Shown in pieces: positions 1,313 through 60,289 of a stretch of 64,000 nucleotides of DNA. The stretch spans positions 4,366 through 68,365 of the forward strand of contig CAIXRH010000045.1 in NCBI GenBank assembly GCA_903921785.1, in the 5' to 3' direction. The position numbers and the translations under genes were made by a program. Each line of letters starts with the position of its first letter. Position 1 is the stretch's first letter. The notes below the pieces were generated by a model. The model ran no database searches. It was not told where the DNA came from and was given only the letters and a program-made list of their open reading frames with translations. Source of the DNA: an uncultured Pseudomonadota bacterium. Lineage in GTDB: Bacteria > Myxococcota_A > UBA796 > SXON01.

Positions 1313-2188
1313 CTACAGCCCCCGCGCCCACTCCGGCCGCAGCCGCACCTCGCCCGCGAGCGCCCCATCGAGCGCGTGGAGCATCCGCTCCCGGTCGCGC
1401 GGGAGGTCTCCAGCGAGGGGGAGGTAGTTGCTCGCGTGGTTCGTTCGGAACACCGCGTTGGTGGGCGAGGCGACGGCGAGGAAGTCGCGCAGCTCGACGA
1501 GGAGCCCCCGGACGTCCGGCAGCGTGAACCGCCCGCGATCCTGCAAGCGTGCGAGCGGGGTTCCGGGCACGACGGTGAGGGTGAGCGCGGAGAGGTAGGC
1601 CGGGTCCATCGCCGTGGCCAGCGCGCCCGACGCGGCGGCGTGCTCCGCCGAGCGCTCCACTCCGCCGGCCCCGAGGAGGAAGATGACGCTGAGCTCGATT
1701 CCCGCCGCTCGCGCTTTCGCCGCGGCCGCCGCGTGCTCCGCGAACGTGGCGCCCTTGGCGATGCGCCGGAGGGTCACGTCGTCTCCGGACTCCGGCCCGA
1801 TGTAGAGCCGGGTGAGGCCAGCGACGCGGAGCTCGGTGAGCGCCTCCGCCGACTTCTCCAGCAGGTTCCGCGCGGTGGCGTACGCGCTCACGCGGCGCAG
1901 GTTGGGGAAGTGCCGTTGAGCATCCCCCAGGATCACCCGCCAATGGTCCATCGGGAGCACGAGCGCGTCACCGTCCGCCACGAAGAGCTTCTCGACCCTC
2001 GACCCGAAGCGGCTCGCCGCCATCGCGAGGTCCTCACGGGTCTCCGCGACCGGGCGGGGCCGATACACCCGCTTGTCCTGATACATGTCGCAGTAGGTGC
2101 AGTGATTCCAGGAACAGCCGATCGAAGCCTGGAGAATGTATGCGTCGGCCTCGGAGGGGGGTCGATACAGTTTGCCGATGTATCGCAT
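1313..2188 (-). CDS. radical SAM domain protein
   Basis: Track ORF of 291 aa. It has the CxxxCxxC cluster motif near the N-terminus (IGCSWNHCTYCDMY), then GDALVLP, LYIGPESGDD and IFLLGAGG blocks. Its ATG shares 1 nt with the TGA of the upstream hydrolase gene. Confidence 0.85.
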   Translation of the reverse strand: MRYIGKLYRPPSEADAYILQASIGCSWNHCTYCDMYQDKRVYRPRPVAETREDLAMAASRFGSRVEKLFVADGDALVLPMDHWRVILGDAQRHFPNLRRVSAYATARNLLEKSAEALTELRVAGLTRLYIGPESGDDVTLRRIAKGATFAEHAAAAAKARAAGIELSVIFLLGAGGVERSAEHAAASGALATAMDPAYLSALTLTVVPGTPLARLQDRGRFTLPDVRGLLVELRDFLAVASPTNAVFRTNHASNYLPLAGDLPRDRERMLHALDGALAGEVRLRPEWARGL

Positions 2189-2682
2189 CAGGCCACGACC
2201 GGGGCGAGGCCGAAGCCCGCGAGCGCCCGCAGCAAGCTGCCGTCCTCGAGGATCTGGTTCAACCGGTGGTCGCCGCCAGGCAATACATGGAGCGATACCC
2301 CCGGCCCGGCGTCCGCGACCAGACGCCGCGAATCACCGACCGGGATCAGGTCGTCCGCCTCGCCGTGGAACACCACGACGCGCGAGCCGAAGGGGAGCGA
2401 GACATCGTCCCCGAGCCGCGCCTGCGCCGGGGCGATGAGCACCGTCGGGCCGGACCACGCGCCGTCGTGGAGGAGCCGGACGGCGATCGCGCCGCCGAAC
2501 GACGATGCGACGACGACCTTCGGTTGGACCTCCGCCAGCGCCGCGCGCGCCCCGTCGAGGGCGGCGGCGAAGGTGCGGGTGTCGAGCTGCGGGGTGACTG
2601 CCCCGAAGCGGGCCGCGAGCCACCGTGCCTTGGTGCCGAGCGGGCCGCTCTCCAGGCCGTGGAGGAAGAGGATCGGGGCCAT
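2188..2682 (-). CDS. YqiA/UPF0227-like alpha/beta hydrolase (esterase)
   Basis: Track ORF 2188..2823 trimmed to the ATG at 2682. The protein reads MAPILFLHGLESGP..., with the nucleophile elbow VVASSFGG, an acid in HGEADDLIP and a His in GGDHRLN. It is about 164 aa, the usual size for YqiA-type esterases. Confidence 0.7.
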   Translation of the reverse strand: MAPILFLHGLESGPLGTKARWLAARFGAVTPQLDTRTFAAALDGARAALAEVQPKVVVASSFGGAIAVRLLHDGAWSGPTVLIAPAQARLGDDVSLPFGSRVVVFHGEADDLIPVGDSRRLVADAGPGVSLHVLPGGDHRLNQILEDGSLLRALAGFGLAPVVA

Positions 2683-2758
2683 GTTCCGAAGAGGTACACC
2701 GGCAGACCGGCCGCGTCCACGGGCGCCACGCTCCGCCCCGGTTAGGGCGACCCGGTCG

Positions 2759-5215
2759 ATGATCGTCGCCCCCCCTGAGCTCCGGCGTTGGATCGTGCTC
2801 TCGGTGGCCGCGGCGGCAGCCATGTCCGTCGGGTGCGCCCAGTACAGGGCCTACCCCCTGCTCGCGCTGGAGTCGCCCGTTCGTGGGGATCCGCTCGAGC
2901 TCAGCGGCGTCGCCCGCCTCGACGACGGGCGGATCGTGGCGGTGGCCGAAGGCGTCGCCAAGGCGCTCTATGCGCCCGATCCCGATCAGCCGCTGCGGCC
3001 TGGAGGGCTCCTTGATCTCCTCCCGTTGCAGGACGGCCGGGAAGACTGTGTCGGCACCCGCCGCGCCACGCTCCGCTGCGCCCTCCGCCACTTCCGCGCC
3101 GAGGTGAAGCTCCAGGCGCAGCCGGTGGTGTGGCTGGACCGCGAACGCAGCCGGGACGCCGCCTTCGACGTCGAGGACCTCGCGCCGTTCGGGCCCGATC
3201 GGGTGCTGGGGGTCACCAAGTACTCCTCGATCGGGCGCCGCACCGGCTTCCGCAAGGAGCGGATGGCGCGATCCCGCCGCGAGACGGAGCGGCTGTTCGC
3301 GCTCCAGCGCGAGGGCACCCGGTGGGTCGAGCTCGACCTCCCAGAGGTCTCCCGGCTGCGCGACTCCTTGAGCGACTGGGGGCGCGCCAACTGCAACGAC
3401 GATCTCCTCGTGGAAGGCCTGGCGTGGCGGCCCGAGATCGGCGAGGTCGACGTGGGGCTGAGCCGCTGCAACGGCCCGGTGCTCCGGGTGCTCCGATACC
3501 CGCTCGACGACGCCCGAAAGGGGCTCTCGGCCACGCTCTCCGTGCTCGCCGATGGCACGGGAGACACTCCGACCGGCGTCGCGGAGTCGCTCTCAGGGCT
3601 GAGCGCTGCCAACGGGCAGCTCTACGCCACCTCTGCGTGGGACAGCTACGGTTACGACACGGAGCCGGCGTTCGGGGGGCGGCTCTGGCACGTCGAAGGC
3701 AGCCGACTCGCCCCGTTGGAGCTGGTCGAGACCTTCAAGGATCGCCCTTCGGCGCTGGCCGTCCTTCCCAGCTCGAACGCTGAGGATGGCGATGTCCAGG
3801 CCCTGGTTTTGTTCGACAACGACGCCGACGCCGGCTCGGCCTGGCGACCGAACGCGACCGTGCTCGTTTCCCCGACGGCCGCGCCGCGTGGCGGTGCGTG
3901 GATGGAGTTGGAGTCGGTCGAGCGGATGCCCACCGCCCTCCCGCTCGGCTTGAACGGCTTCGACCTCCGCTGGTTCGCCCGCGATCATCGCCTCAGCCAG
4001 ATCGCGTTCGGGCTCGCGGAGAATCAGGCCGGAGAGGCCGGCGCGTGGAGCCGCGCGATCGGCGGGCGCTGGCAGGTCGAGGTCGGTGGCTCGCTCGGCA
4101 TGTGGGGGCGTGCCCTGCTCCCCCGGAGCGCCATGGGCCGCAACCGACAGGCCGTCGCGCTCACGGACTACCGGTCCGTGCCAGGGCTCACGTTCACCCG
4201 ATACCGGGTGAAGCTCTCGGTGATCCCTCGCGATCGGGAGCGGGAGAACCCCTCCGTGGCCGAGCTGATGGAGGCGCTGCACGACGCCTACACGGTGGCC
4301 GTCCCCATCGACACCACCACGCCGGGCGCCGGCGTGATGCTCCAGGGCTTCTCGATCGACACCTCCAGCCGGGCCGAGGAGGGCATCTGCCTCGCCGGCC
4401 TCGACGTGAGCGCCAGCCTCACGGCCCCCGACGCCCTCTCCGTGCGCAGCACGATGATCGGCGGCATCTGCAACGACTTCGACAACCGCGGCCCCACCCT
4501 CCGCCACGGCCGCACCACCCGGCCGGACGGCGGCGTCTCGGTGATCCTGGATCTCGCGGTGGTCGAGGGCGACCACGCCGCCGAGGGGAGCGCCGCCGTT
4601 TGGGACCGCGCGCTCCCGGCCCCTGGCGTAGACCCGGCCGCCGACCGCGCCGCGGCTGCGCTCCGCGCCACCTCCGATCGCGAGGCCCGTGCCAGCCTTC
4701 ATTGCGCCTTCGCCGCCAACGATGGCACCGTGCGTCCCCTCCCCCGCCAGCCCCAGGCGCCGCCGCCCGACTGGCAGGTGCTCGGTCAGGCCACGTCGGG
4801 CACCCTGGCGGGGGTGGCCGGCAGCCTGCGGGGCTTCGCGCTCGCCTGGGACCCCGTCGGCTTCGATCCCGGCCTGGCCCGCCCCCACCTCACGGAGGCC
4901 GAGGCGCTCGCCCGAAACAACTACGTGTTTCGCTACCTGACCCGGGTGTTCGTGCGACCGGAGGGGACCTTCCTTGAGGCTGGGATCACCCATGGAATCC
5001 ACAAGTCTGGTCTCATGCGGGACAACGCCCGGCCAAGCGCGCTCTACACTCGGGTAGACCTCACGAGCTTCGGCGCGCTCCCGGCCGCGCCCGCCGCCTG
5101 GGACCTCGTGGCCCCCCCGGGAACGGACGACCCGAACCTGCTCCCCGAAGACGGCTTCGTCCGGTGGGCCACCCCCTTCCCGCTCGGAGTGCCGTCGTGC
5201 TCGCCGGGCTACTGA
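2759..5215 (+). CDS. large hypothetical lipoprotein (818 aa)
   Basis: Only the last 818 codons of the 1279-aa track ORF 1376..5215 look like protein. The ATG at 2759 gives MIVAPPELRRWIVLSVAAAAAMSVGCAQY, a signal peptide plus lipobox. Composition is balanced afterwards. I recognise no family. Confidence 0.75.
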   Translation: MIVAPPELRRWIVLSVAAAAAMSVGCAQYRAYPLLALESPVRGDPLELSGVARLDDGRIVAVAEGVAKALYAPDPDQPLRPGGLLDLLPLQDGREDCVGTRRATLRCALRHFRAEVKLQAQPVVWLDRERSRDAAFDVEDLAPFGPDRVLGVTKYSSIGRRTGFRKERMARSRRETERLFALQREGTRWVELDLPEVSRLRDSLSDWGRANCNDDLLVEGLAWRPEIGEVDVGLSRCNGPVLRVLRYPLDDARKGLSATLSVLADGTGDTPTGVAESLSGLSAANGQLYATSAWDSYGYDTEPAFGGRLWHVEGSRLAPLELVETFKDRPSALAVLPSSNAEDGDVQALVLFDNDADAGSAWRPNATVLVSPTAAPRGGAWMELESVERMPTALPLGLNGFDLRWFARDHRLSQIAFGLAENQAGEAGAWSRAIGGRWQVEVGGSLGMWGRALLPRSAMGRNRQAVALTDYRSVPGLTFTRYRVKLSVIPRDRERENPSVAELMEALHDAYTVAVPIDTTTPGAGVMLQGFSIDTSSRAEEGICLAGLDVSASLTAPDALSVRSTMIGGICNDFDNRGPTLRHGRTTRPDGGVSVILDLAVVEGDHAAEGSAAVWDRALPAPGVDPAADRAAAALRATSDREARASLHCAFAANDGTVRPLPRQPQAPPPDWQVLGQATSGTLAGVAGSLRGFALAWDPVGFDPGLARPHLTEAEALARNNYVFRYLTRVFVRPEGTFLEAGITHGIHKSGLMRDNARPSALYTRVDLTSFGALPAAPAAWDLVAPPGTDDPNLLPEDGFVRWATPFPLGVPSCSPGY

Positions 5216-27638: not shown

Positions 27639-27705
27639 CGCGCCGACGCCGATGCCGGCTCGCGAGGGTGTAGTCGGGCTGGGAGGGGGAACCAACCTTA
27701 GGCCC
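27639..27705 (+). repeat. repeat family B, copy 1
   Basis: CGCGCCGACGCCGATGCCGGCTCGCGAGGGTGTAGTCGGGCTGGGAGGGGGAACCAACCTTAGGCCC. It starts 2 nt after the pip stop and is the most diverged of the five copies. Confidence 0.65.
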
Positions 27706-41593: not shown

Positions 41594-41650
41594 GGGTGGG
41601 TTCACCTCCCGGCCCGGCCCCACCCTCGCGAGCCAGGACCGGCGTCGGCG
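41594..41650 (-). repeat. repeat family B, copy 2 (inverted)
   Basis: The reverse complement reads CGCCGACGCCGGTCCTGGCTCGCGAGGGTGGGGCCGGGCCGGGAGGTGAACCCACCC. It begins immediately after the GT4 stop codon. Confidence 0.7.
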
Positions 41651-49061: not shown

Positions 49062-51095
49062 TCAGTGCACCAGCTCCCGGAAAACCTCCGGGAGCCGCGC
49101 CGGGAGCTGATCCGGGTCGTCCAACTCCAGGAAGCGGCCCGCGCCGAAGATCTCCGTGAGGTAGCGGCTCGCGCCGGCCTCGGCGTCCAGCGACACGCAG
49201 TAGACGTGAACGCCGAGCCGACGCGCTTCGGCGACGGCCATCGCGGTGTCCCGGATGCCCTTGCGCCCGCGGTAGTCCCCACGATCCTCGGGTTTTCCGT
49301 CGGAGACGACCATGAGAATCCGCCGGGACTCCGCGCGCTGGTCGAGCAGCCAGGCCGCGTGGCGGATGAACGCCCCCATCCGGGTGGCGCCGTTGGGGCG
49401 GAGGTTCGCCATACGCTTGTGGACGGGCTCGCCGTAGCCTTCGTCGAACCCCTTGAGCCGCCAGAGCTGGCAGTCCTGGGGGTGGGTGTTGCCGAAGCCG
49501 TAGAAGGCGTGCGGGAAGCCGAGGGTGCGGAGGCCCTCGGCAAAGAGCACGATCGACGTCTGTTCCAGGTGGATCACGTGCCCCTGGGTGCTCCCCGAGA
49601 GGTCGACCATCGTGAGGATCGCCACCGACTGCTTCGCGCGGATGTACCGGCGGAAGATGCGCTCGTCGGGGGACTGGCCGCCGGCGACGTCGGTCAGCGC
49701 GAGGATGGCGCGGTTGAGGTCCACCTCGGGGCCGTCCGGCTGGCCGCCAACCCAACGTTCTTCCACCCGTAAGGCGGCGAAGCGGCGGCGGATCTGCTTG
49801 ATCTGGGTGGCGTTGGCCTCCACGATGCGCTCGTACGTGCCGAGCGGGCCCGTGGGCGCCTCCGGGGTGAAGACCCGCGTGGCGTCGAGCTGGTAGACCC
49901 CGGCGGCGTCGTCCCACTCGTCCCAGGACTTCCCGCCGTCCTCCGACGGCTTCTCGGGCGTGTCGCTGGTGAGGGCGGCGGGGTCGGCGCCGGCGGACCA
50001 CTGCGCGGCGCCGTAGCGCACCTCCCGGGAGGCTTCCTGGGCTTCGTCGCGGAGCTTGCCGTAGGCGGGCGCGTTGTTCGCCGGGGCGGGCGGGCCGCTG
50101 AGCTTGGCGAACAGCCGGGCGCGGAGGCCCTGGCGGGGTGCATCGGGGGCGGGCGGGGCGTCGGCGACCGGGCCGCGGCGGGCCACCGCGTCGAGGAGCT
50201 GCCGAAGCGGCTTGTTCCCCTTCTTCCACTCGTTCTCCGCGACGAAGTCGCGGGCGAGGTCGGCGAGGATCCACTCGGGGCGGAGGATGCCCACGAAGAA
50301 AGGCAGCGGCGGCGGGCCGAGGCGGAGGCGGCGGAAGGTCTCGCGGAGCCGCTGCGCCTGGCCGAGGAGCACCGGCACCGCGCCGCGTTCGCCGATGCGG
50401 TCCACCGCCTGGATCGCCTCCCGCGCGGGATCCCCTTCCGGGCCAGGCGTGCGCCAGTTCAGGCACACGGTGAGGCCGTCGTAGAGCGGGATGAACGCCG
50501 GAGGCAGGCCGTCCCGGGGGACCTCGGTGAGGTTCACCCGCAGGGTGCCGGCCTTCTCCAGGTAGGGCACGCGGGCGAGGTCTTCGCGGAGGCCGGGCCA
50601 CTGCTCCACCCACCGGCGAAGCACGTAGCGGGCAGCGAGGAGGTGGAAGGCGCTGCGGAGCACCCAGTCACGGTAGAGCTCGCCGAGCACATGCCGCTCG
50701 TCGAGCAGGCCGAACCGGGAGAACCCGAGCTGCACGAGGCCGGCGGCGCGGAAGACCAGCAGGTCGTCGGGCGACTCGGGCGCGGGCATCGCCTTCGGGA
50801 GGTAGATCGTCTCGTTATCGGTACACGCCGGGTCGCTGTGGCCGATGCGCACCGGCCGGCCCGAGAACATCGTGAACAGGGCGGCGAGCTGGCGATTCAC
50901 CCGGTCCAGCCGCAGCCCGTGGCGCTCGCCCGAGGTGAGCTGGCGCTCCGGCGGGGCGAAGAGGAAGCGGCGGAGGAGCGCGAGCTCGGCCTCCTCGTCG
51001 GTCTCCGCGGCGAGGCCGAGCGCGGCCTCGTCCACGTCGTACTCCTCCATCGTCTCGCGGAGGAGGTCCTCGGGGCGGACGGTGGGGGCGGGCAT
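49062..51095 (-). CDS. CbbO/NorD-type von Willebrand factor A domain protein
   Basis: 677 aa. The C-terminal VWA domain has the MIDAS motif (ILTMVDLSGST...VVSDGKPED...VYCVSLD). The long helical N-terminal region is as in NorD/CbbO. Its start lies 1 nt downstream of the AAA+ gene stop. Confidence 0.85.
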   Translation of the reverse strand: MPAPTVRPEDLLRETMEEYDVDEAALGLAAETDEEAELALLRRFLFAPPERQLTSGERHGLRLDRVNRQLAALFTMFSGRPVRIGHSDPACTDNETIYLPKAMPAPESPDDLLVFRAAGLVQLGFSRFGLLDERHVLGELYRDWVLRSAFHLLAARYVLRRWVEQWPGLREDLARVPYLEKAGTLRVNLTEVPRDGLPPAFIPLYDGLTVCLNWRTPGPEGDPAREAIQAVDRIGERGAVPVLLGQAQRLRETFRRLRLGPPPLPFFVGILRPEWILADLARDFVAENEWKKGNKPLRQLLDAVARRGPVADAPPAPDAPRQGLRARLFAKLSGPPAPANNAPAYGKLRDEAQEASREVRYGAAQWSAGADPAALTSDTPEKPSEDGGKSWDEWDDAAGVYQLDATRVFTPEAPTGPLGTYERIVEANATQIKQIRRRFAALRVEERWVGGQPDGPEVDLNRAILALTDVAGGQSPDERIFRRYIRAKQSVAILTMVDLSGSTQGHVIHLEQTSIVLFAEGLRTLGFPHAFYGFGNTHPQDCQLWRLKGFDEGYGEPVHKRMANLRPNGATRMGAFIRHAAWLLDQRAESRRILMVVSDGKPEDRGDYRGRKGIRDTAMAVAEARRLGVHVYCVSLDAEAGASRYLTEIFGAGRFLELDDPDQLPARLPEVFRELVH

Positions 51096-51867: not shown

Positions 51868-51966
51868 GGGTCGCAGGTAGCGCGGCGGCCGGGCCGGGGC
51901 GAGGGCGGGCGTCGGGCCGGGCGACCGCGGGTAGCGACGCACACGGTTCGCAGCTACAGTCGCCCT

Positions 51967-52833
51967 GTGCCGCCTCCGACGCCGATGACCACGCTCCGCC
52001 ACCCGCTGCCGTGGCTGGCCGCGGCGCTCATCGCCGGCAACGACTTCGTGCTCCGCGGGGTCGCGCCGGGGTGGCTCACCGGGAAGCTCTCCGACGTGGG
52101 CTGGCTGGTCGTCGTGCCGGTGCTCGCGGCCGCAGCGCTCTCCGGGCTCGGCGTCCATGCCCGCCGGGCCGAACGGGCGGCGCTCGCGGCGACGGCTGCG
52201 TTCTACGCGGTGCTGCAGCTCTGGCCGCCGCTTGGCGCCTGGTTCTCCGCGGCGCACGTGGCCGACGTGGGCGATCTCGTCGCGCTCCCGGCGCTCCTCC
52301 TCGCCGTCGTCGCCTGGCGCACGCCCGGATGGCGCCTCCCGGTTCCCGCCCTCCTCGCCGCCCCCGTCTTCGCCAGCGTGCTCCTGGCCGACGGCCTCAC
52401 GTCTCCGTCCGAGGGGAGCGCGCCCTGCGAGGCCACGCCCGTCTGGCCCACCGCTGCCCCGTTCCGCGTGGAGCTCGACGCCGCCTACGATCCCCAGGGC
52501 GACCGGTTCCGGCGTGGGCTCCACCTCGTGGACGGCGAGGGGAACGAGCTCGCCCTCGTGGTGGCGGACGACACCTGGCCCACCGCAGTCTGTGCACGTG
52601 AGGGGCTCGAGCCCAACACGACGTACTCCCTCGCCATCGGCCCCTGGGACGAAGGATCGGCGAACGACGCCCCGATCGACCACCCCGGCCTGGGCACGGT
52701 GACCTTCACCACCGACGACAGCGCAGGGGCGCCGGCCGACGACTCCGATGCCTGCTTCGCGCTATCGGAAGATTACGAGCTCTCCGAGGAGGACGAGGAT
52801 CTCTGCTGGTTCGCCCCGGGCGTGCCCGGGTGA
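51967..52833 (+). CDS. duplicated module gene A1: five-TM inner-membrane protein with periplasmic Ig-like domain and acidic Cys-containing tail
   Basis: The GTG at 51967 is conserved in the paralog. There are five predicted TM helices with positive loops ([15 protein letters not shown]) on one side. The soluble domain has an [13 protein letters not shown]-type Ig-like strand pattern. The tail reads [22 protein letters not shown]. Confidence 0.7.
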
Positions 52834-53666
52834 CCTTTTTCGTGCTCCCCGTGCTCCCGACGCTGGCCAGCCTCGCCTGGGCAGACGACCCGGCTCCGCC
52901 CAGCCCGCTCCCGCTCCCCGAGGACCCGGCGCTGCACGAAGAGCCAATCCTCAACCGCATCCGGTTCACGCCGCATGCGCGCCTCTCGTTCTCCGGGTTC
53001 CGTCTCCAGCTCCCGGCCGGCCGCCCGGCGCTCTCCGCGCGCCTCGCGCTCGTCGCCGACCCCATCGGACTCGGCATCGGCGAGCTCACCCTCCGCGGCC
53101 AGGCCGGGTGGACGTGGTTCGCGGTCGACGCCGAGGTGGTCGTCGCCGGTGCAGTGGCGGACGAATGGAGCCGGAAGGGGTTCGGGAACGCAAGGTTCAA
53201 CGCGGCGATCGTCTTCGGGCCCGCCGAGGCCACCAACACGCTCGGCGTTCAGGTGACGGTGCCTCGCCCGTGGTACGAAGGCGCCGACACGATCAGCTTC
53301 TGGGGGAGCGTGCCGGAGGCGACGATCGGCGCACCGGGCGCCTCGATCGTCTACTCCGGCACCACGGGCGCGCTCGGCTGGCATCTGCAGACGGGCCTGC
53401 GCGACGCCAGGAGCGGGAACTCCGCCGCGTTCACCCCCATTGACCTGGAGGCGATGATCGCCTACGAAGCGCCGCTCGTGCCGGGATGGGCGCTGGTCAC
53501 CGAGGCGGAGGCCGCCCTCGGCGCGAGCCCGTTCCAGCTCCGGGTGCTGGCCCGGGGCACGCCCGGCCGCGGCTGGACCGCGGACGTGGGCCTGGTCGCG
53601 CCGATCCCGTCGATCTTCACGGCGCCTTCACTGCAGGTGGTCTCCCAGGTGGCCCGGCGGTTCTGA
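52830..53666 (+). CDS. duplicated module gene B1: putative outer-membrane beta-barrel protein
   Basis: The GTG start overlaps the A1 stop (GTGA). It has the signal peptide [18 protein letters not shown] and an amphipathic strand pattern, and ends ...SLQVVSQVARRF. Confidence 0.7.
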   Translation: MTFFVLPVLPTLASLAWADDPAPPSPLPLPEDPALHEEPILNRIRFTPHARLSFSGFRLQLPAGRPALSARLALVADPIGLGIGELTLRGQAGWTWFAVDAEVVVAGAVADEWSRKGFGNARFNAAIVFGPAEATNTLGVQVTVPRPWYEGADTISFWGSVPEATIGAPGASIVYSGTTGALGWHLQTGLRDARSGNSAAFTPIDLEAMIAYEAPLVPGWALVTEAEAALGASPFQLRVLARGTPGRGWTADVGLVAPIPSIFTAPSLQVVSQVARRF

Positions 53667-53677
53667 CGGGGCGAGGC

Positions 53678-53744
53678 AGGGTTTCACGGTTGTTCCCCCT
53701 CCCGGCCCCCCTCCAACCTCGCGAGCCAGGACCGACGTCGGCGC
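53678..53744 (-). repeat. repeat family B, copy 3 (inverted)
   Basis: The reverse complement reads GGCGCCGACGTCGGTCCTGGCTCGCGAGGTTGGAGGGGGGCCGGGAGGGGGAACAACCGTGAAACCC. It lies 11 nt after the B1 stop, between the two duplicated modules. Confidence 0.75.
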
Positions 53745-53859
53745 CGGAGCCGGAGAACCCCCGGAACCGGCGGCGCCGCGGCCGCCGCGCCAACGGCTCC
53801 ATCCCCGGGTCGGGCGTCCCGCTATGGCGACAAGTCAGGTTCGCGGCTACAGTCGCCCT

Positions 53860-54723
53860 GTGCCGCCTCCGACGCCGATCACCGCGCTCCGCCACCCGCT
53901 GCCGTGGCTGGCCGCGGTGCTCATCGTGGGCAACGACTTCGTGCTCCGCGGGGTCGCGCCGGGGTGGCTCACCGGGAAGCTCGCCGACGTGGGCTGGCTG
54001 GTCGTCGTGCCGGTGCTCGCCGCCGCCGCGCTCTCCGGGCTCGGCGTCGGCGCCCGCCGGGCGGAGCGGGCGGCGCTCGTGGCGACGGCGGTGTTCTACA
54101 CGGCGCTGCAGCTCTGGCCGCCGCTGGGCGCGTGGTTCTCCGCGTCGCACGTAGCCGACTTGGGCGATCTCCTCGCGCTGCCAGCGCTCCTCCTGGCCGT
54201 CGTCGCCTGGCGCACGCCCCGACTCGCCCTGCCCGTGCCCGCGGCTCCCGCGTTGCCCGCCTTCACCGCCGTGCTCCTTGCGGATACGCCGGCTGAGCCG
54301 ATGGACGCGAGCTGGCCCTGCGAGGCGACGCCGACCTGGCCGACGGCCGCCCCGCTGCGCTTCGAGCTCGACGCGATCTACGACATCTACGGCGACCGTT
54401 TTCATCGCGGAGTCCACCTCGTGGACGAGGACGGCGTGGAGGTCCCGCTGGTGATCTCGGCCGACGCCTGGCCCGATGCGCTCTGCGCGAGAGACGGGCT
54501 GGAGCCCAACACCAGCTACACCCTCACCATCGGCCCCTGGAGCGAAGGGTCGGCGAACGACACCCCGATTGACCATCCGGGGCTTCCCGCGGTCACCTTC
54601 ACCACCGACGACAGCCCGGGGGAGCCGGCCGCGGACGCGGACGCCTGCGCGGCGCTGGCAGAGGACTTCCCACTTCCGGAGGAAGACGAGGAGCTCTGCG
54701 CGGAGCCCGAGGAAGCCGCTTGA
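53860..54723 (+). CDS. duplicated module gene A2 (paralog of A1)
   Basis: Track ORF 53824..54723. I prefer the GTG at 53860 because the upstream DNA (GGTTCGCRGCTACAGTCGCCCTGTGCCGCC) is conserved with the A1 start. Most residues are identical to A1 by eye, especially in the TM region. Confidence 0.7.
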   Translation: MPPPTPITALRHPLPWLAAVLIVGNDFVLRGVAPGWLTGKLADVGWLVVVPVLAAAALSGLGVGARRAERAALVATAVFYTALQLWPPLGAWFSASHVADLGDLLALPALLLAVVAWRTPRLALPVPAAPALPAFTAVLLADTPAEPMDASWPCEATPTWPTAAPLRFELDAIYDIYGDRFHRGVHLVDEDGVEVPLVISADAWPDALCARDGLEPNTSYTLTIGPWSEGSANDTPIDHPGLPAVTFTTDDSPGEPAADADACAALAEDFPLPEEDEELCAEPEEAA

Positions 54724-55562
54724 CGACGCTCTCGCCGCTCGGCTGGATGCTCGCTGGGGGAATGACCGTGGCCCGCGCCGACGAGCCCGCACCGCCCGGC
54801 CCGCTCCCGCTCCCCGACGATCCGGCGCTGCGCGAGGAGCCGGTCCTCAACCGGATCCGCTTCGTTCCCCACGCCCGGCTGTCGTTCTCGGGCTTCCGGC
54901 TCCAACTGCCCACCGGCCGCCCGGCGCTCTCCGCGCGCCTCGCGCTCGTGGCGGACCCCATCGGCCTCGGCATCGGCGAGCTGACCCTCCGCGGCCAGGC
55001 CGGCTGGACGTGGTTCGCCCTCGACGCCGAGGTCGTCGTCGCGGGGGCCGTGGCGGACGGCTGGAGTCGTAAGGGGCTCGGGAACGCGAAGCTCAACGCG
55101 GCGGTCGTCTTCGGGCCCGCCGCGGTCACCAACACCCTCGGCCTCCAGGTGACGTTGCCGAAGCCGGAGTACTCGGGGGCGGAGATGCTCAGCTTCTGGG
55201 GTACGGTTCCGGCGGCGACGGTGCGAGCAGGGGGGCTCGCGATCGCCTACACGGGCACCACCGGCGCGCTCGCGTGGCACCTCCAGACGGGGCTCTGGTA
55301 CTTCCCCATCGTCAACGGATCCGCGCTCAGCGCGGTGGACCTCGAGGCCATGGTCGCCTACGAGGCGCCGCTCGCGCCGGGCTGGGCGCTGGTCACCGAG
55401 GCGGAGGCCGCCCTCGGCGCCAGCCCGTTCCAGGTCCGCGTGCTGGCCCGGGGCACGCCCGGCCGCGGCTGGACCGCGGACGTGGGCCTGGTCGCCCCGA
55501 TCCCGTCGATCTTCACGGCGCCTTCGCTGCAGGTGGTGTCCCAGGTGGGCCGGCGGTTCTGA
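54720..55562 (+). CDS. duplicated module gene B2 (paralog of B1)
   Basis: The TTG start called by the track overlaps the A2 stop. Long stretches are identical to B1, e.g. the last 70 aa or so including APIPSIFTAPSLQVVSQVxRRF. Confidence 0.7.
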   Translation: MTTLSPLGWMLAGGMTVARADEPAPPGPLPLPDDPALREEPVLNRIRFVPHARLSFSGFRLQLPTGRPALSARLALVADPIGLGIGELTLRGQAGWTWFALDAEVVVAGAVADGWSRKGLGNAKLNAAVVFGPAAVTNTLGLQVTLPKPEYSGAEMLSFWGTVPAATVRAGGLAIAYTGTTGALAWHLQTGLWYFPIVNGSALSAVDLEAMVAYEAPLAPGWALVTEAEAALGASPFQVRVLARGTPGRGWTADVGLVAPIPSIFTAPSLQVVSQVGRRF

Positions 55563-55857: not shown

Positions 55858-57522
55858 ATGTTGGAGCGATTCAAGCGCGCCGTGATCGCGAGTGTGGGCC
55901 GCGGCGCCGGTCTGGCTGCGGGAGCCGCATCCGTCGCGGTCCTCAGCCTGGGGATTCTCTTCTGCCTCACGACGCTTGGCGCCGAGTGGCTGGCGGCAGC
56001 CCTCGAAAACGAACAACGCCAGCAGTGGTCGGAGGTGCTCGCCTGTCTGGCCTCGCCCTCCCCGGTCTTGTTCGCGGCGCCCGTCCTCTTGCTGGGTCCT
56101 TCCGCCTCGCTGTGCGTACTCGCGTCGATGAACGAGTCCCGCCGCTCCCGGATCGACCAGTTGCTGCGGCAGGCCGCCGGGGGCGGGCAAGACGCGGACG
56201 AAGGAAGCAACGTTCTCCGCCTCGCCGCGAACAACACCCGGAACCAGCTCCTGGTGGCGGCGGCGGCGGTGTTCATGAACTGCGCGATCGGGTTCATGCT
56301 CCTGGAGCTGCAGCAGGGAACTCGGGTTTTCGACTCCCTGAAGGTCCCGCAGGACGTGTGGAGGCTCGCCGCGATGTCGTTCATCGGAGGCTGGTTCTTC
56401 GCGATGGGGAGGTTGCTCCGCCGCATCGTCGAGCGGGACCCGACCTCCGCCGCCGGCTGGACCGTCCTCCGCGGGATCACCGTCGCGCCGCTGCTGGGCG
56501 CGCTCGTCCACTTCATGCCGACCAGTGAGGGCTCCCAGACACCGGAGATCGTCGCGTTCCTCGTGGGCGCGTTCCCGACCATGGCCGACCGGTTCATCGT
56601 CCAGTTCGCGCGACAGTCGTTCAAGGATGAACGGAACTCCACCGCGCTGCGACCGCTGGCGAACCTCGCCGGAATGACCCTCGAGTGTGCGGAGCGGCTG
56701 GGGGAGGAGGGCATCTACGACGCCCATCATCTCGCGAACTCCAACCCACAGACCCTGATGCTGCGGACGCCGTTCGGCTTGCGTCGCCTCCTGGACTGGA
56801 TGGACGAGGCGCTGCTCTACCGGTACCTGCAGGACGCCGCCTTCACCCGACGCGCCGAAGCGGGGATCACCGGCTCGCTCGACCTGGTCGCCCGGTGGCG
56901 CGGCGCGACGCCCGACGACGCCGACAACGAGGCCACCGGCTTCGGCATGCTGGCGGAGACCCTCGGCGTGGACGGCGTGACCCTCTGGTGGATCTGCCAT
57001 CACATCAGCAGTGACGCCCAGTACACGGTGCTCGCCGGGCTGTACAACGCCGAACGCGCGGATGACCCGCCCGGGCTCCTGAAGCGTGGCGAATACGCCG
57101 ACGCCGAAGCGGCATACGAGCGCGCGCGAAACGTCGCGGACTTCGGTCGTTGGGAGGCGCGGTGGCGAATGCCGGGCGGTGAGGAGGCGCCGCTCGCGCT
57201 GGACCTCGCCCGCACCCGCCCCCACGCGTGGCGAAAGCTGGCGGCGCACAAGGTGGAGAACCACGAGATCGACGCGGCGGTGGCCATCCTCGACGCGTAC
57301 CTGGAAGCCTACCCGGATTCCCCCGATGCCGACGAGGCGTGGGCGCTGCTCCACCCTGCAGGGGCGGCCGCGGTCATCCGGGCGTGGCTCGCGCTCATCC
57401 AGCGGCGCCCCGGGGCCAGGGCCCGACTGGCGGCGCTGCCCGAACAAGCCGAGAGGTTCCCGAAGCCCGTCGACGGGACAGCCCACGAAGCGGCGGTCGC
57501 CGAGCTGAGCGCGGCCCTGTAG
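55858..57522 (+). CDS. hypothetical polytopic membrane protein with helical soluble C-terminal half
   Basis: The ATG at 55858 lies within track ORF 55624..57522. The first 260 aa or so hold several TM helices. A helix-hairpin-helix-like segment follows (GMTLECAERLGEEGIYDAHHLANSNPQTL), then a TPR-like helical tail. I recognise no family. Confidence 0.65.
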   Translation: MLERFKRAVIASVGRGAGLAAGAASVAVLSLGILFCLTTLGAEWLAAALENEQRQQWSEVLACLASPSPVLFAAPVLLLGPSASLCVLASMNESRRSRIDQLLRQAAGGGQDADEGSNVLRLAANNTRNQLLVAAAAVFMNCAIGFMLLELQQGTRVFDSLKVPQDVWRLAAMSFIGGWFFAMGRLLRRIVERDPTSAAGWTVLRGITVAPLLGALVHFMPTSEGSQTPEIVAFLVGAFPTMADRFIVQFARQSFKDERNSTALRPLANLAGMTLECAERLGEEGIYDAHHLANSNPQTLMLRTPFGLRRLLDWMDEALLYRYLQDAAFTRRAEAGITGSLDLVARWRGATPDDADNEATGFGMLAETLGVDGVTLWWICHHISSDAQYTVLAGLYNAERADDPPGLLKRGEYADAEAAYERARNVADFGRWEARWRMPGGEEAPLALDLARTRPHAWRKLAAHKVENHEIDAAVAILDAYLEAYPDSPDADEAWALLHPAGAAAVIRAWLALIQRRPGARARLAALPEQAERFPKPVDGTAHEAAVAELSAAL

Positions 57523-57543: not shown

Positions 57544-57611
57544 CGCGCCGACGCTGGTCCTGGCTCGCGACGATGGAGGAGGGCCGGGAGGGGGAACTAC
57601 CTTGAATCCCC
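57544..57611 (+). repeat. repeat family B, copy 4
   Basis: GCGCGCCGACGCTGGTCCTGGCTCGCGACGATGGAGGAGGGCCGGGAGGGGGAACTACCTTGAATCCCC. It lies between two convergent stop codons (57522 and 57611). Confidence 0.75.
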
Positions 57612-60160: not shown

Positions 60161-60206
60161 GGGAAACCGCCGACGGTGGCTACCGGGCGCTCCCCGCGCG
60201 TGGACC

Positions 60207-60289
60207 GGCGCCGACGCCGGTCATGGCTGGCCCACTTCGGGCGCGCTCGGGTGGAGAAGGGCCGGGAGAGGGAACTACCTTGAATCCCC
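60207..60289 (+). repeat. repeat family B, copy 5 (with about 20-nt internal insertion)
   Basis: GGCGCCGACGCCGGTCATGGCTGG...GGTGGAGAAGGGCCGGGAGAGGGAACTACCTTGAATCCCC. It contains the TAG stop (60277-60275, minus strand) of the GH25 gene. Confidence 0.7.

Follow-up and report, generated by a model that had tools for sequence, protein, structure and literature searches.

A tandem A-B-A-B repeat of a two-gene membrane module with mosaic divergence between its copies in an uncultured Myxococcota-like bacterium

We analysed a stretch of 64,000 nucleotides (nt) from an uncultured bacterium (assembly GCA_903921785.1, contig CAIXRH010000045.1, positions 4,366 to 68,365 of the forward strand), called the window below; its G+C content is 71.8%. 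The window contains a two-gene unit in two tandem copies, A-B-A-B: unit 1 at ~51913-53666 and unit 2 at ~53806-55562, repeated with a period of 1893/1896 nt. Gene A encodes a membrane protein with an immunoglobulin (Ig)-like domain, and gene B a protein that is probably a small outer-membrane barrel. The copies have diverged unevenly, and the pattern of synonymous differences fits best with gene conversion at the two ends of the unit. The genes and spacers are as follows; all of the genes are called as open reading frames (ORFs).

51945-51984 (+): leader upstream of the A1 ATG (GGTTCGCAGCTACAGTCGCCCTGTGCCGCCTCCGACGCCG); possibly 5′ untranslated region, or coding if A starts at GTG 51967
51985-52833 (+): A1, 282 amino acids (aa); GTG 51967 as alternative start; the call in public assemblies is also 282 aa
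52830-53666 (+): B1, 278 aa; GTG start, 4-nt overlap (GTGA) with the A1 stop
53667-53823 (+): spacer between the units; holds the 53683-53744 copy of a dispersed ~65-nt repeat
53824-54723 (+): A2, 299 aa as called from ATG 53824; alternative GTG start at 53860
54720-55562 (+): B2, 280 aa; TTG start, 4-nt overlap (TTGA) with the A2 stop

An earlier note on this DNA, made by reading the letters without database searches, had described a tandem two-gene duplication with a period of about 1.89 kb that included about 35 nt upstream of the first gene. Direct repeats bear this out: 51913-52212 matches 53806-54105 (89%, spacing 1893), 52411-52710 matches 54304-54603 (75%) and 52875-53174 matches 54771-55070 (85%, spacing 1896). 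The shared upstream stretch is ~40 nt long, the leader at 51945-51986 being 97.6% identical to 53838-53879. The unit 2 counterpart of this leader lies inside the called A2 ORF, and the GTG common to both units (51967 and 53860) could be the true start of A1 and A2. At the protein level A2 is 74% identical to A1, and B2 is 78% identical to B1. Translational coupling of B to A, as the note had proposed, agrees with the 4-nt overlap seen in both units. The spacer does not resemble the sequence that follows B2.

The gene order 282/278/299/280 aa recurs in three separate assemblies (ERZ1426593, ERZ27313441 and ERZ1426536), and B1 is present on 14 contigs. As the same A-B-A-B order was obtained in three independent assemblies, the duplication is real. 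The sole point for an assembly artefact is a Logan contig with a single unit (locus L006, described below); against it, besides the repeated gene order, stands the divergence of the copies, 10-40% along most of the unit, which excludes a collapsed or expanded identical repeat. We consider the probability of an artefact to be practically negligible.

Conservation between the copies was claimed to be mosaic, and nucleotide identity in 60-nt sliding windows agrees with that. Units 1 and 2 are 90-98% identical over 51970-52300, the transmembrane (TM) part of A, and 93-98% identical over 53437-53640, the end of B; identity is 58-85% between both ends and ~40% outside the units. Nei-Gojobori estimates of synonymous (dS) and nonsynonymous (dN) divergence, and of the proportion of synonymous differences (pS), were made between the copies, with A ORF codons numbered from 51931/53824. 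They gave the following values by segment, and two tracts of low dS.

A codons 19-128 (TM1-TM4 and most of TM5): dS 0.15; pS 0.04-0.07 over TM1-TM2
A codons 129-160 (end of TM5 and linker): dS 0.82
A Ig-like domain: dS 0.62
A tail: dS 1.67
B codons 21-129: dS 0.49, dN 0.06
B codons 130-205: dS 0.55, dN 0.31
B codons 206-278: dS 0.16
51985-52310 (+): left gene-conversion tract, A codons ~1-110, homologous to 53878-54203; low dS
53445-53666 (+): right gene-conversion tract, B codons ~206-278, homologous to 55341-55562; low dS

The 4- to 10-fold synonymous drop at the ends is inexplicable by selection on the proteins and thus indicates recent homogenisation, by gene conversion or unequal exchange. 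As a control we used a second tandem A-B-A-B, at locus L012, where pS stays at 0.35-0.68 along nearly the whole pair, the one dip, to 0.2, being confined to the first 40 codons of A; the higher level is what purifying selection alone leaves. The mosaic therefore fits best with a mainly gene-conversion origin. The ratio dN/dS between the copies lies at 0.12-0.58 for the main coding segments and nowhere rises above 1, the value for the doubtful first 18 codons of A being 0.98. The highest values in main segments are 0.58 (TM5, linker and Ig domain of A) and 0.56 (B residues 130-205), and A TM5/linker and B residues 130-205 appear to be under relaxed selection, not driven apart.

The earlier note had offered two causes for the mosaic, recent gene conversion at the ends or diversifying selection on the exposed parts; the drop in dS upholds the former, and dN/dS below 1 speaks against the latter. 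According to the second of these explanations the variable parts would belong, for instance, to a polymorphic receptor, a phage or bacteriocin target or a kin-recognition pair, and two copies would mean two specificities. It is true that the most diverged protein segments are those with the highest dN/dS, and that the module has been duplicated repeatedly (two independent tandem events and up to three units in one metagenome-assembled genome, MAG). Still, no segment has a dN/dS as high as 1, conserved and diverged parts contrast just as strongly at synonymous sites, beyond the reach of protein selection, and the variable domain of A would be periplasmic rather than exposed at the surface. There are no PADLOC matches, and the hybrid unit of L006 mixes both ‘specificities’. 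We regard this explanation as improbable.

The contig of locus L006 (Logan ERR12084960, positions 1-2263) has ~90% nucleotide identity to the window and carries one unit between the unit 1 upstream flank and the unit 2 downstream flank. This unit is A1-like to ~52560 and A2/B2-like from ~52590, which puts the crossover near window position 52575. It is either the product of an unequal crossover between pre-existing copies or an assembly chimera. Should the hybrid be real, the copies arose before the split from L006 and are still recombining with each other. We propose that the duplication would be older than the split from the nearest sampled relative, that recombination between the copies would later have evened out the first third of A and the last quarter of B, and that the middle (TM5, linker, Ig-like domain, tail and the first three quarters of B) would keep the older divergence under purifying to relaxed selection.

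Turning to protein A, the AlphaFold2 (AF2) model of A1 built from a 25-sequence alignment has a mean confidence score (pLDDT) of 82, with >90 in the Ig-like sandwich. It shows five helices (7-21, 29-54, 59-87, 95-112 and 122-134), a beta-sandwich at 144-243 and then two short C-terminal helices; A1 is built of a conserved 4-TM core, a fifth TM helix, an Ig-like domain and a short acidic tail. The five TM helices and C-terminal Ig-like domain read from the sequence alone are thereby recovered. Foldseek searches of the model against PDB returned Ig-like matches only (BIg domains of LdtMt2, SbsC and CopC), with E-values of 3e-3 or weaker, and the membrane part of A was left without any match. No match to A was found in Pfam, NCBIfam or PADLOC, and PDB profile searches with A and its TM core gave nothing better than E 0.7.

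The part of A behind the membrane has exactly four Cys (C148, C203, C257 and C274), invariant in 25 of 25 homologues, and is strongly acidic (27 D/E versus 8 K/R), while K/R residues are concentrated in the N-terminus and in loops 2-3 and 4-5. By the positive-inside rule we assign to A, with moderate confidence, a topology with the N-terminus inside and the Ig-like domain in the periplasm, in keeping with the note's placement of this domain and its acidic, Cys-bearing tail. The topology gains support from relatives of the TM core that carry an extracytoplasmic-type beta-propeller: these have the fifth helix, whereas stand-alone forms have four helices only. The domain has a weak fold match to CopC (1m42, E 0.048, TMt 0.55). 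Membership in the CopC family was considered and rejected, there being no invariant or near-invariant His or Met column (0-5 His and 0-3 Met per sequence). All A homologues outside the clade of the window end in acidic DTGDTGDS-type repeats (tails of L002-L023). At L111 a neighbouring lipoprotein (2003-3052) has a repeat of the same type as a linker, so that the DTG-type tail looks like a lineage-typical disordered linker and not a specific motif.

Protein B1 begins with a signal peptide (..LAWA/DD) followed by a Pro-rich LPLP segment, continues with ~12-14 amphipathic beta strands and ends with ..RRF. Features of this kind recur in the family. In 30 of 36 B sequences the first 35 residues include a hydrophobic stretch that is free of charges and 8 or more residues long, and in 26 of 36 the last alignment column is F, W or Y (the ends of B1 and B2 read ..VSQV(A/G)RRF). 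Column-averaged hydropathy alternates with period 2 in ~12-14 segments that correspond to the strands assigned by DSSP in the AF2 model of B. Matches of this model in Foldseek were nearly all outer-membrane barrels of 10-14 strands, among them invasin (4e1t), KdgM, NanC, PcoB (7pge, a weak fold match with E 4e-3), FapF and OMPLA. The mature N-terminus has a conserved (D/E)xLPLPxxRP-type segment, and further conserved motifs are WSxAGLGN, WWGTVPxATVP, VGExE and RxLxR. Neither B nor its distant relatives match a curated family (Pfam, NCBIfam and PADLOC for B itself), and the PDB profile search with B gave nothing better than E 0.7. The barrel-like nature suggested earlier from the signal peptide, beta periodicity and terminal Phe receives support from the hydropathy pattern, the fold matches and the terminal aromatic residue; judging from sequence and model, B is probably a small outer-membrane barrel.

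Both families are rare. Among 5.8 billion proteins full-length A amounts to 26 clusters (90% identity), each of them annotated as ‘hypothetical’, and a profile search found 46 representatives of B among 1.84 billion proteins. In genome and metagenome scans A and B were seen in MAGs labelled Myxococcota, Deltaproteobacteria or ‘uncultured proteobacterium’, many of them apparently from freshwater-lake metagenome projects. Considering loci where DNA continues past A, we observed B directly after A, usually with a 4-nt overlap, in 22 units at 20 distinct loci, including those where A is only 30-37% identical to A1 (L021, L023 and L035); there was a single exception (L016). Neighbour-joining trees recover the same clades for A as for B, and the genes around A-B vary among loci. 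Because the pairing is constant, the trees are congruent and the other neighbours change, A-B is an autonomous co-inherited two-gene module. Its absence from the described systems, as the note had suspected, is consistent with the lack of any Pfam, NCBIfam, PADLOC or PDB-sequence match; a literature search with generic terms found nothing relevant.

The module tends to multiply: tandem duplication has happened twice independently, and a MAG can have as many as three units. The tandem A-B-A-B at L012 (5983-9456, JAZKFH010000027) belongs to a different clade and is phylogenetically independent of the one in the window; a third, unlinked unit (L015) is present in the same MAG. Two unlinked A genes (L014 and L016) were found in MAG CAIQVJ01. 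The more distant relative L111 has a single unit, set among other genes, with B 74% identical.

The TM core of A belongs to a larger family. A profile of the first ~135 residues of A together with two distant relatives retrieved 1,161 clusters (90% identity). Many of the best matches are stand-alone 4-TM proteins of 150-200 aa from Myxococcaceae; others come from Actinomycetota and Chloroflexota. Among 80 loci kept from soil and sediment metagenomes, the commonest form is a protein of 520-570 aa with the module at its N-terminus: the 4-TM module, a fifth helix and a beta-rich domain of ~370-400 aa. In L058 (5944-7527) this domain is a PQQ_2/BamB-like beta-propeller (E 4e-23), and others have weak BNR (Asp-box)/Sortilin signals; further proteins combining the module with a beta-rich domain were found at L026 (5941-7563) and ~40 more metagenome loci (L045-L110). 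Forms from Lentzea and other actinomycetes have extra C-terminal TM helices. None of the TM-core forms matched Pfam, NCBIfam or PDB.

In three genomes of cultured Myxococcaceae the stand-alone core gene is preceded, with a 3-nt gap, by a gene for a secreted or lipoprotein-like protein of ~195-202 aa with two conserved Cys. These pairings are located as follows.

L025, 5383-6498
L028, 5413-6510
L030, 5389-6495

Homology of this partner to the Ig domain of A was tried as an explanation and dropped, BLASTP having found nothing. One pattern returns in these cases: the polar 4-TM module is conserved, and the extracytoplasmic beta-rich partner combined with it varies.

Invariant positions of the core are N19, D20, P28, T32-G33-K34-L35-S36-D37, P45, D94, D97, L101 and P102, which give the motifs ND, TGKLSD and DxxDL (D94..D97-L98). 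On the predicted topology the invariant polar residues would lie at the periplasmic ends of TM1, TM2 and TM4. Motifs D-x-x-x-K and x-A-D at membrane ends had suggested an LspA-like peptidase (A8). That candidate was rejected: hhalign of a 34-sequence profile against E. coli LspA gave a probability of 0.14% over 15 aligned columns, and Peptidase_A8 had no match to the core in Pfam scans at E up to 10 or up to 1.

We suggest the following arrangement. A would be anchored in the inner membrane with its N-terminus in the cytoplasm, its core being a widespread uncurated membrane module. The fifth helix would lead the chain out to the Ig-like domain, putatively stapled by disulfides, and to the short acidic tail, both in the periplasm. 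The signal peptide would export B, which most likely folds as a small outer-membrane barrel of roughly 12 strands. Each A would work with the B encoded beside it as a cognate inner-/outer-membrane pair: the periplasmic domain or tail of A may contact the periplasmic face of B or its N-terminal (D/E)xLPLPxxRP segment, and such contact might couple the polar site of the 4-TM core to an outer-membrane channel or enzyme. To the overall picture of two copies of an A-B operon for a cognate inner-/outer-membrane pair we give an even chance of being correct, with higher probability for the pairing and the gene conversion and lower for physical docking.

Several observations weigh against this arrangement. 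The AF2 model of B is poor (pLDDT 42, predicted TM-score 0.36, from a 6-sequence alignment), and the fold matches of B reach a TM-score of only 0.3-0.58, which leaves the closed barrel a putative fold. Periplasmic loop 1-2 of A has two conserved basic residues. At L016 (CAIQVJ010000033, 5990-9654) A occurs without B; it is directly followed there by a MoxR-type AAA (AAA_3) gene and a DUF58-like gene. The hybrid of L006, if real, joins an A1-type Ig domain to a B2-type barrel, which argues against strict copy-specific recognition. No result points to a substrate or an activity.

The most frequent neighbours of A-B are proteins with the Pfam Cu-binding_MopE/putative metal-binding motif (5 among 73 neighbour proteins). 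A motif search found such a protein within 5 kb of A-B at 7 of 15 loci, three of them within 1 kb; at the P0018 locus it is immediately upstream of A-B. The MopE-motif neighbours other than that of P0018 are as follows.

L004, 9853-11790
L005, 3773-4999
L007, 7559-9979
L011, 60-1826
L012, 1-1099
L015, 8415-10265
L021, 1892-4090

This brings us to a metal (copper) module like CopC-CopD with PcoB/CopB, in which A would be a transporter with a CopC-like sandwich and B a PcoB-like channel. It would account for the weak fold matches to apo-CopC (1m42) and PcoB (7pge) and for the MopE-motif proteins found close to A-B at about half of the loci; metal might bind at the four invariant Cys and the acidic tail. 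However, the sequences have no similarity to the CopC, CopD or CopB families. The copper sites of CopC use His and Met, and no His or Met is conserved in the periplasmic domain of A, for which generic bacterial Ig domains (LdtMt2, SbsC) are the better fold matches. No multicopper oxidase gene is adjacent, and the 64-kb window is without a MopE-motif protein. A copper module thus appears quite improbable. Another explanation has no trans-envelope complex at all: A would be a membrane hydrolase or transferase acting on an envelope lipid or protein through its periplasm-facing Asn/Asp/Lys/Ser cluster, and B would serve it as a dedicated substrate, as a carrier of its product or as a periplasmic cofactor. 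The invariant core residues are all polar and cluster on one membrane face, a feature shared with small membrane enzymes. The core occurs without a B-like gene in Myxococcaceae, Actinomycetota and Chloroflexota, including monoderms, and is there paired or fused with other extracytoplasmic beta-rich proteins; its presence in monoderms without B means that the activity of the core needs no outer membrane, and the barrel of B is itself only probable. On the other hand, no similarity to known membrane enzyme families was found, the LspA-like aspartyl peptidase failed as described above, and B has the sequence hallmarks of an outer-membrane barrel. We take the enzyme explanation to be unlikely.

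Going back to the cognate inner-/outer-membrane pair, one can speculate further that A-B is a new two-membrane system built on the 4-TM module, whose invariant residues would form a catalytic or ion-coupling site. Different lineages would then plug this site into different partners: in the present case an Ig domain and a barrel, in Myxococcaceae a small lipoprotein, and in soil bacteria beta-propellers. We consider this extension less likely than not.

Upstream of the repeat in the window are two genes divergent from A1 across a 118-nt gap.

49062-51095 (-): VWA/CobT_C-like gene, 677 aa
51097-51867 (-): CbbQ/NorQ-type AAA+ gene (AAA_5 and CbbQ_C)

A linkage of the module to this CbbQ/CbbO-like pair, which the earlier note wished to see surveyed in relatives, is confined to the lineage of the window (L001) and probably L006, where the same 118-nt gap separates the unit from an upstream minus-strand gene. 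It is absent from L002, L004, L005, L007, the P0018 locus, L111 and the 15-locus neighbour census (~18 other loci). A functional tie between A-B and the CbbQ/VWA genes was therefore rejected. The AAA and DUF58-like genes of L016 echo the AAA+/VWA pair beside A1, which may be a coincidence. Downstream of B2, at 55858-57522 (+), is a gene for a 554-aa protein with a weak TPR_14 signal and no other family; it has the same position in L006. A role in anti-phage defence was considered and discarded, as no PADLOC match was found for A, B, the VWA protein or the 554-aa protein.

The ‘repeat B’ reported earlier between the units is probably the same element as a dispersed intergenic repeat of ~65 nt (consensus GGGnTTCAnGGTnGTTCCCCCTCCCGGCCCnnCTCCACCCTCGCGAGCCAGGACCGGCGTCGGCGC), which makes up most of the B1-A2 spacer. 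Five aligned copies were found by blastn against the window.

53683-53744 (+): copy in the B1-A2 spacer
57545-57606 (-): copy
41605-41650 (+): copy
27640-27692 (-): copy
60205-60284 (-): copy

The repeat has no Rfam match, nor does any RNA element in the whole window match Rfam at gathering threshold. A promoter scan of the region found no sigma-70-like site. A GC-rich hairpin (CCCGGGCGTGCCCGGG) with a T-run at 52815-52840 (+) sits exactly on the A1 stop/B1 start; the region has no other terminator-like match, and a single one is no more than chance would give.

If the inner-/outer-membrane couple is true, it would be an unclassified envelope module in poorly known uncultured freshwater Myxococcota-like bacteria, and it would offer the first functional handle (its topology, a small set of invariant residues and an obligate partner) on a larger family of small polytopic membrane proteins without a Pfam or NCBIfam model. 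Should the two-membrane system hold, both a superfamily of membrane proteins and a type of envelope module would be new. As for the duplication, it is ordinary genome evolution. The locus is a clean natural case of segmental gene conversion within a two-gene tandem repeat, and the hybrid unit of L006 amounts to a domain swap made by nature. The gene pair and, above all, the uncurated 4-TM family are new as families, with folds and an operon logic that are familiar.

In its general layout A-B resembles CopC/CopD with PcoB (CopB): an inner-membrane polytopic protein, a periplasmic Ig-/cupredoxin-like sandwich and a small barrel encoded alongside. In YcnJ-type CopC-CopD fusions, too, a polytopic protein is fused to a periplasmic sandwich. 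There is no sequence relation, A has 5 helices versus 8 in CopD and lacks the His/Met ligands of CopC, and no gene for multicopper oxidase is nearby. The sandwich at A 144-243 has the same fold as domains A/B of LdtMt2 from Mycobacterium tuberculosis and the BIg domain of the S-layer protein SbsC (Foldseek probability 0.9-1.0 over ~100 columns, rmsd 3.5-6 Å). These matches have E-values of only 3e-3 to 5e-2 and identities of 10-20%; unlike LdtMt2, A has no catalytic Ldt domain, and its domain has two Cys pairs of its own and a 5-TM anchor.

The best Foldseek matches of B, the KdgM/NanC porins, the invasin/intimin beta-domain and OMPLA, share with it the size (~220-260 mature residues), an up-and-down meander, a signal peptide and a C-terminal aromatic residue. 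They differ in that B has no Pfam or PDB sequence match, a low-confidence model and motifs of its own. TamB-TamA and TonB with TonB-dependent receptors have no homology to A-B; unlike TamB, A is much too short to reach across the whole periplasm, A-B has no linked ExbBD-like motor, and contact between A and B is here a conjecture. What these systems would have in common with A-B is an inner-membrane-anchored protein reaching across the periplasm to a cognate barrel, and the LPLP segment of B and the DTG-type tails of A do resemble periplasm-spanning linkers.

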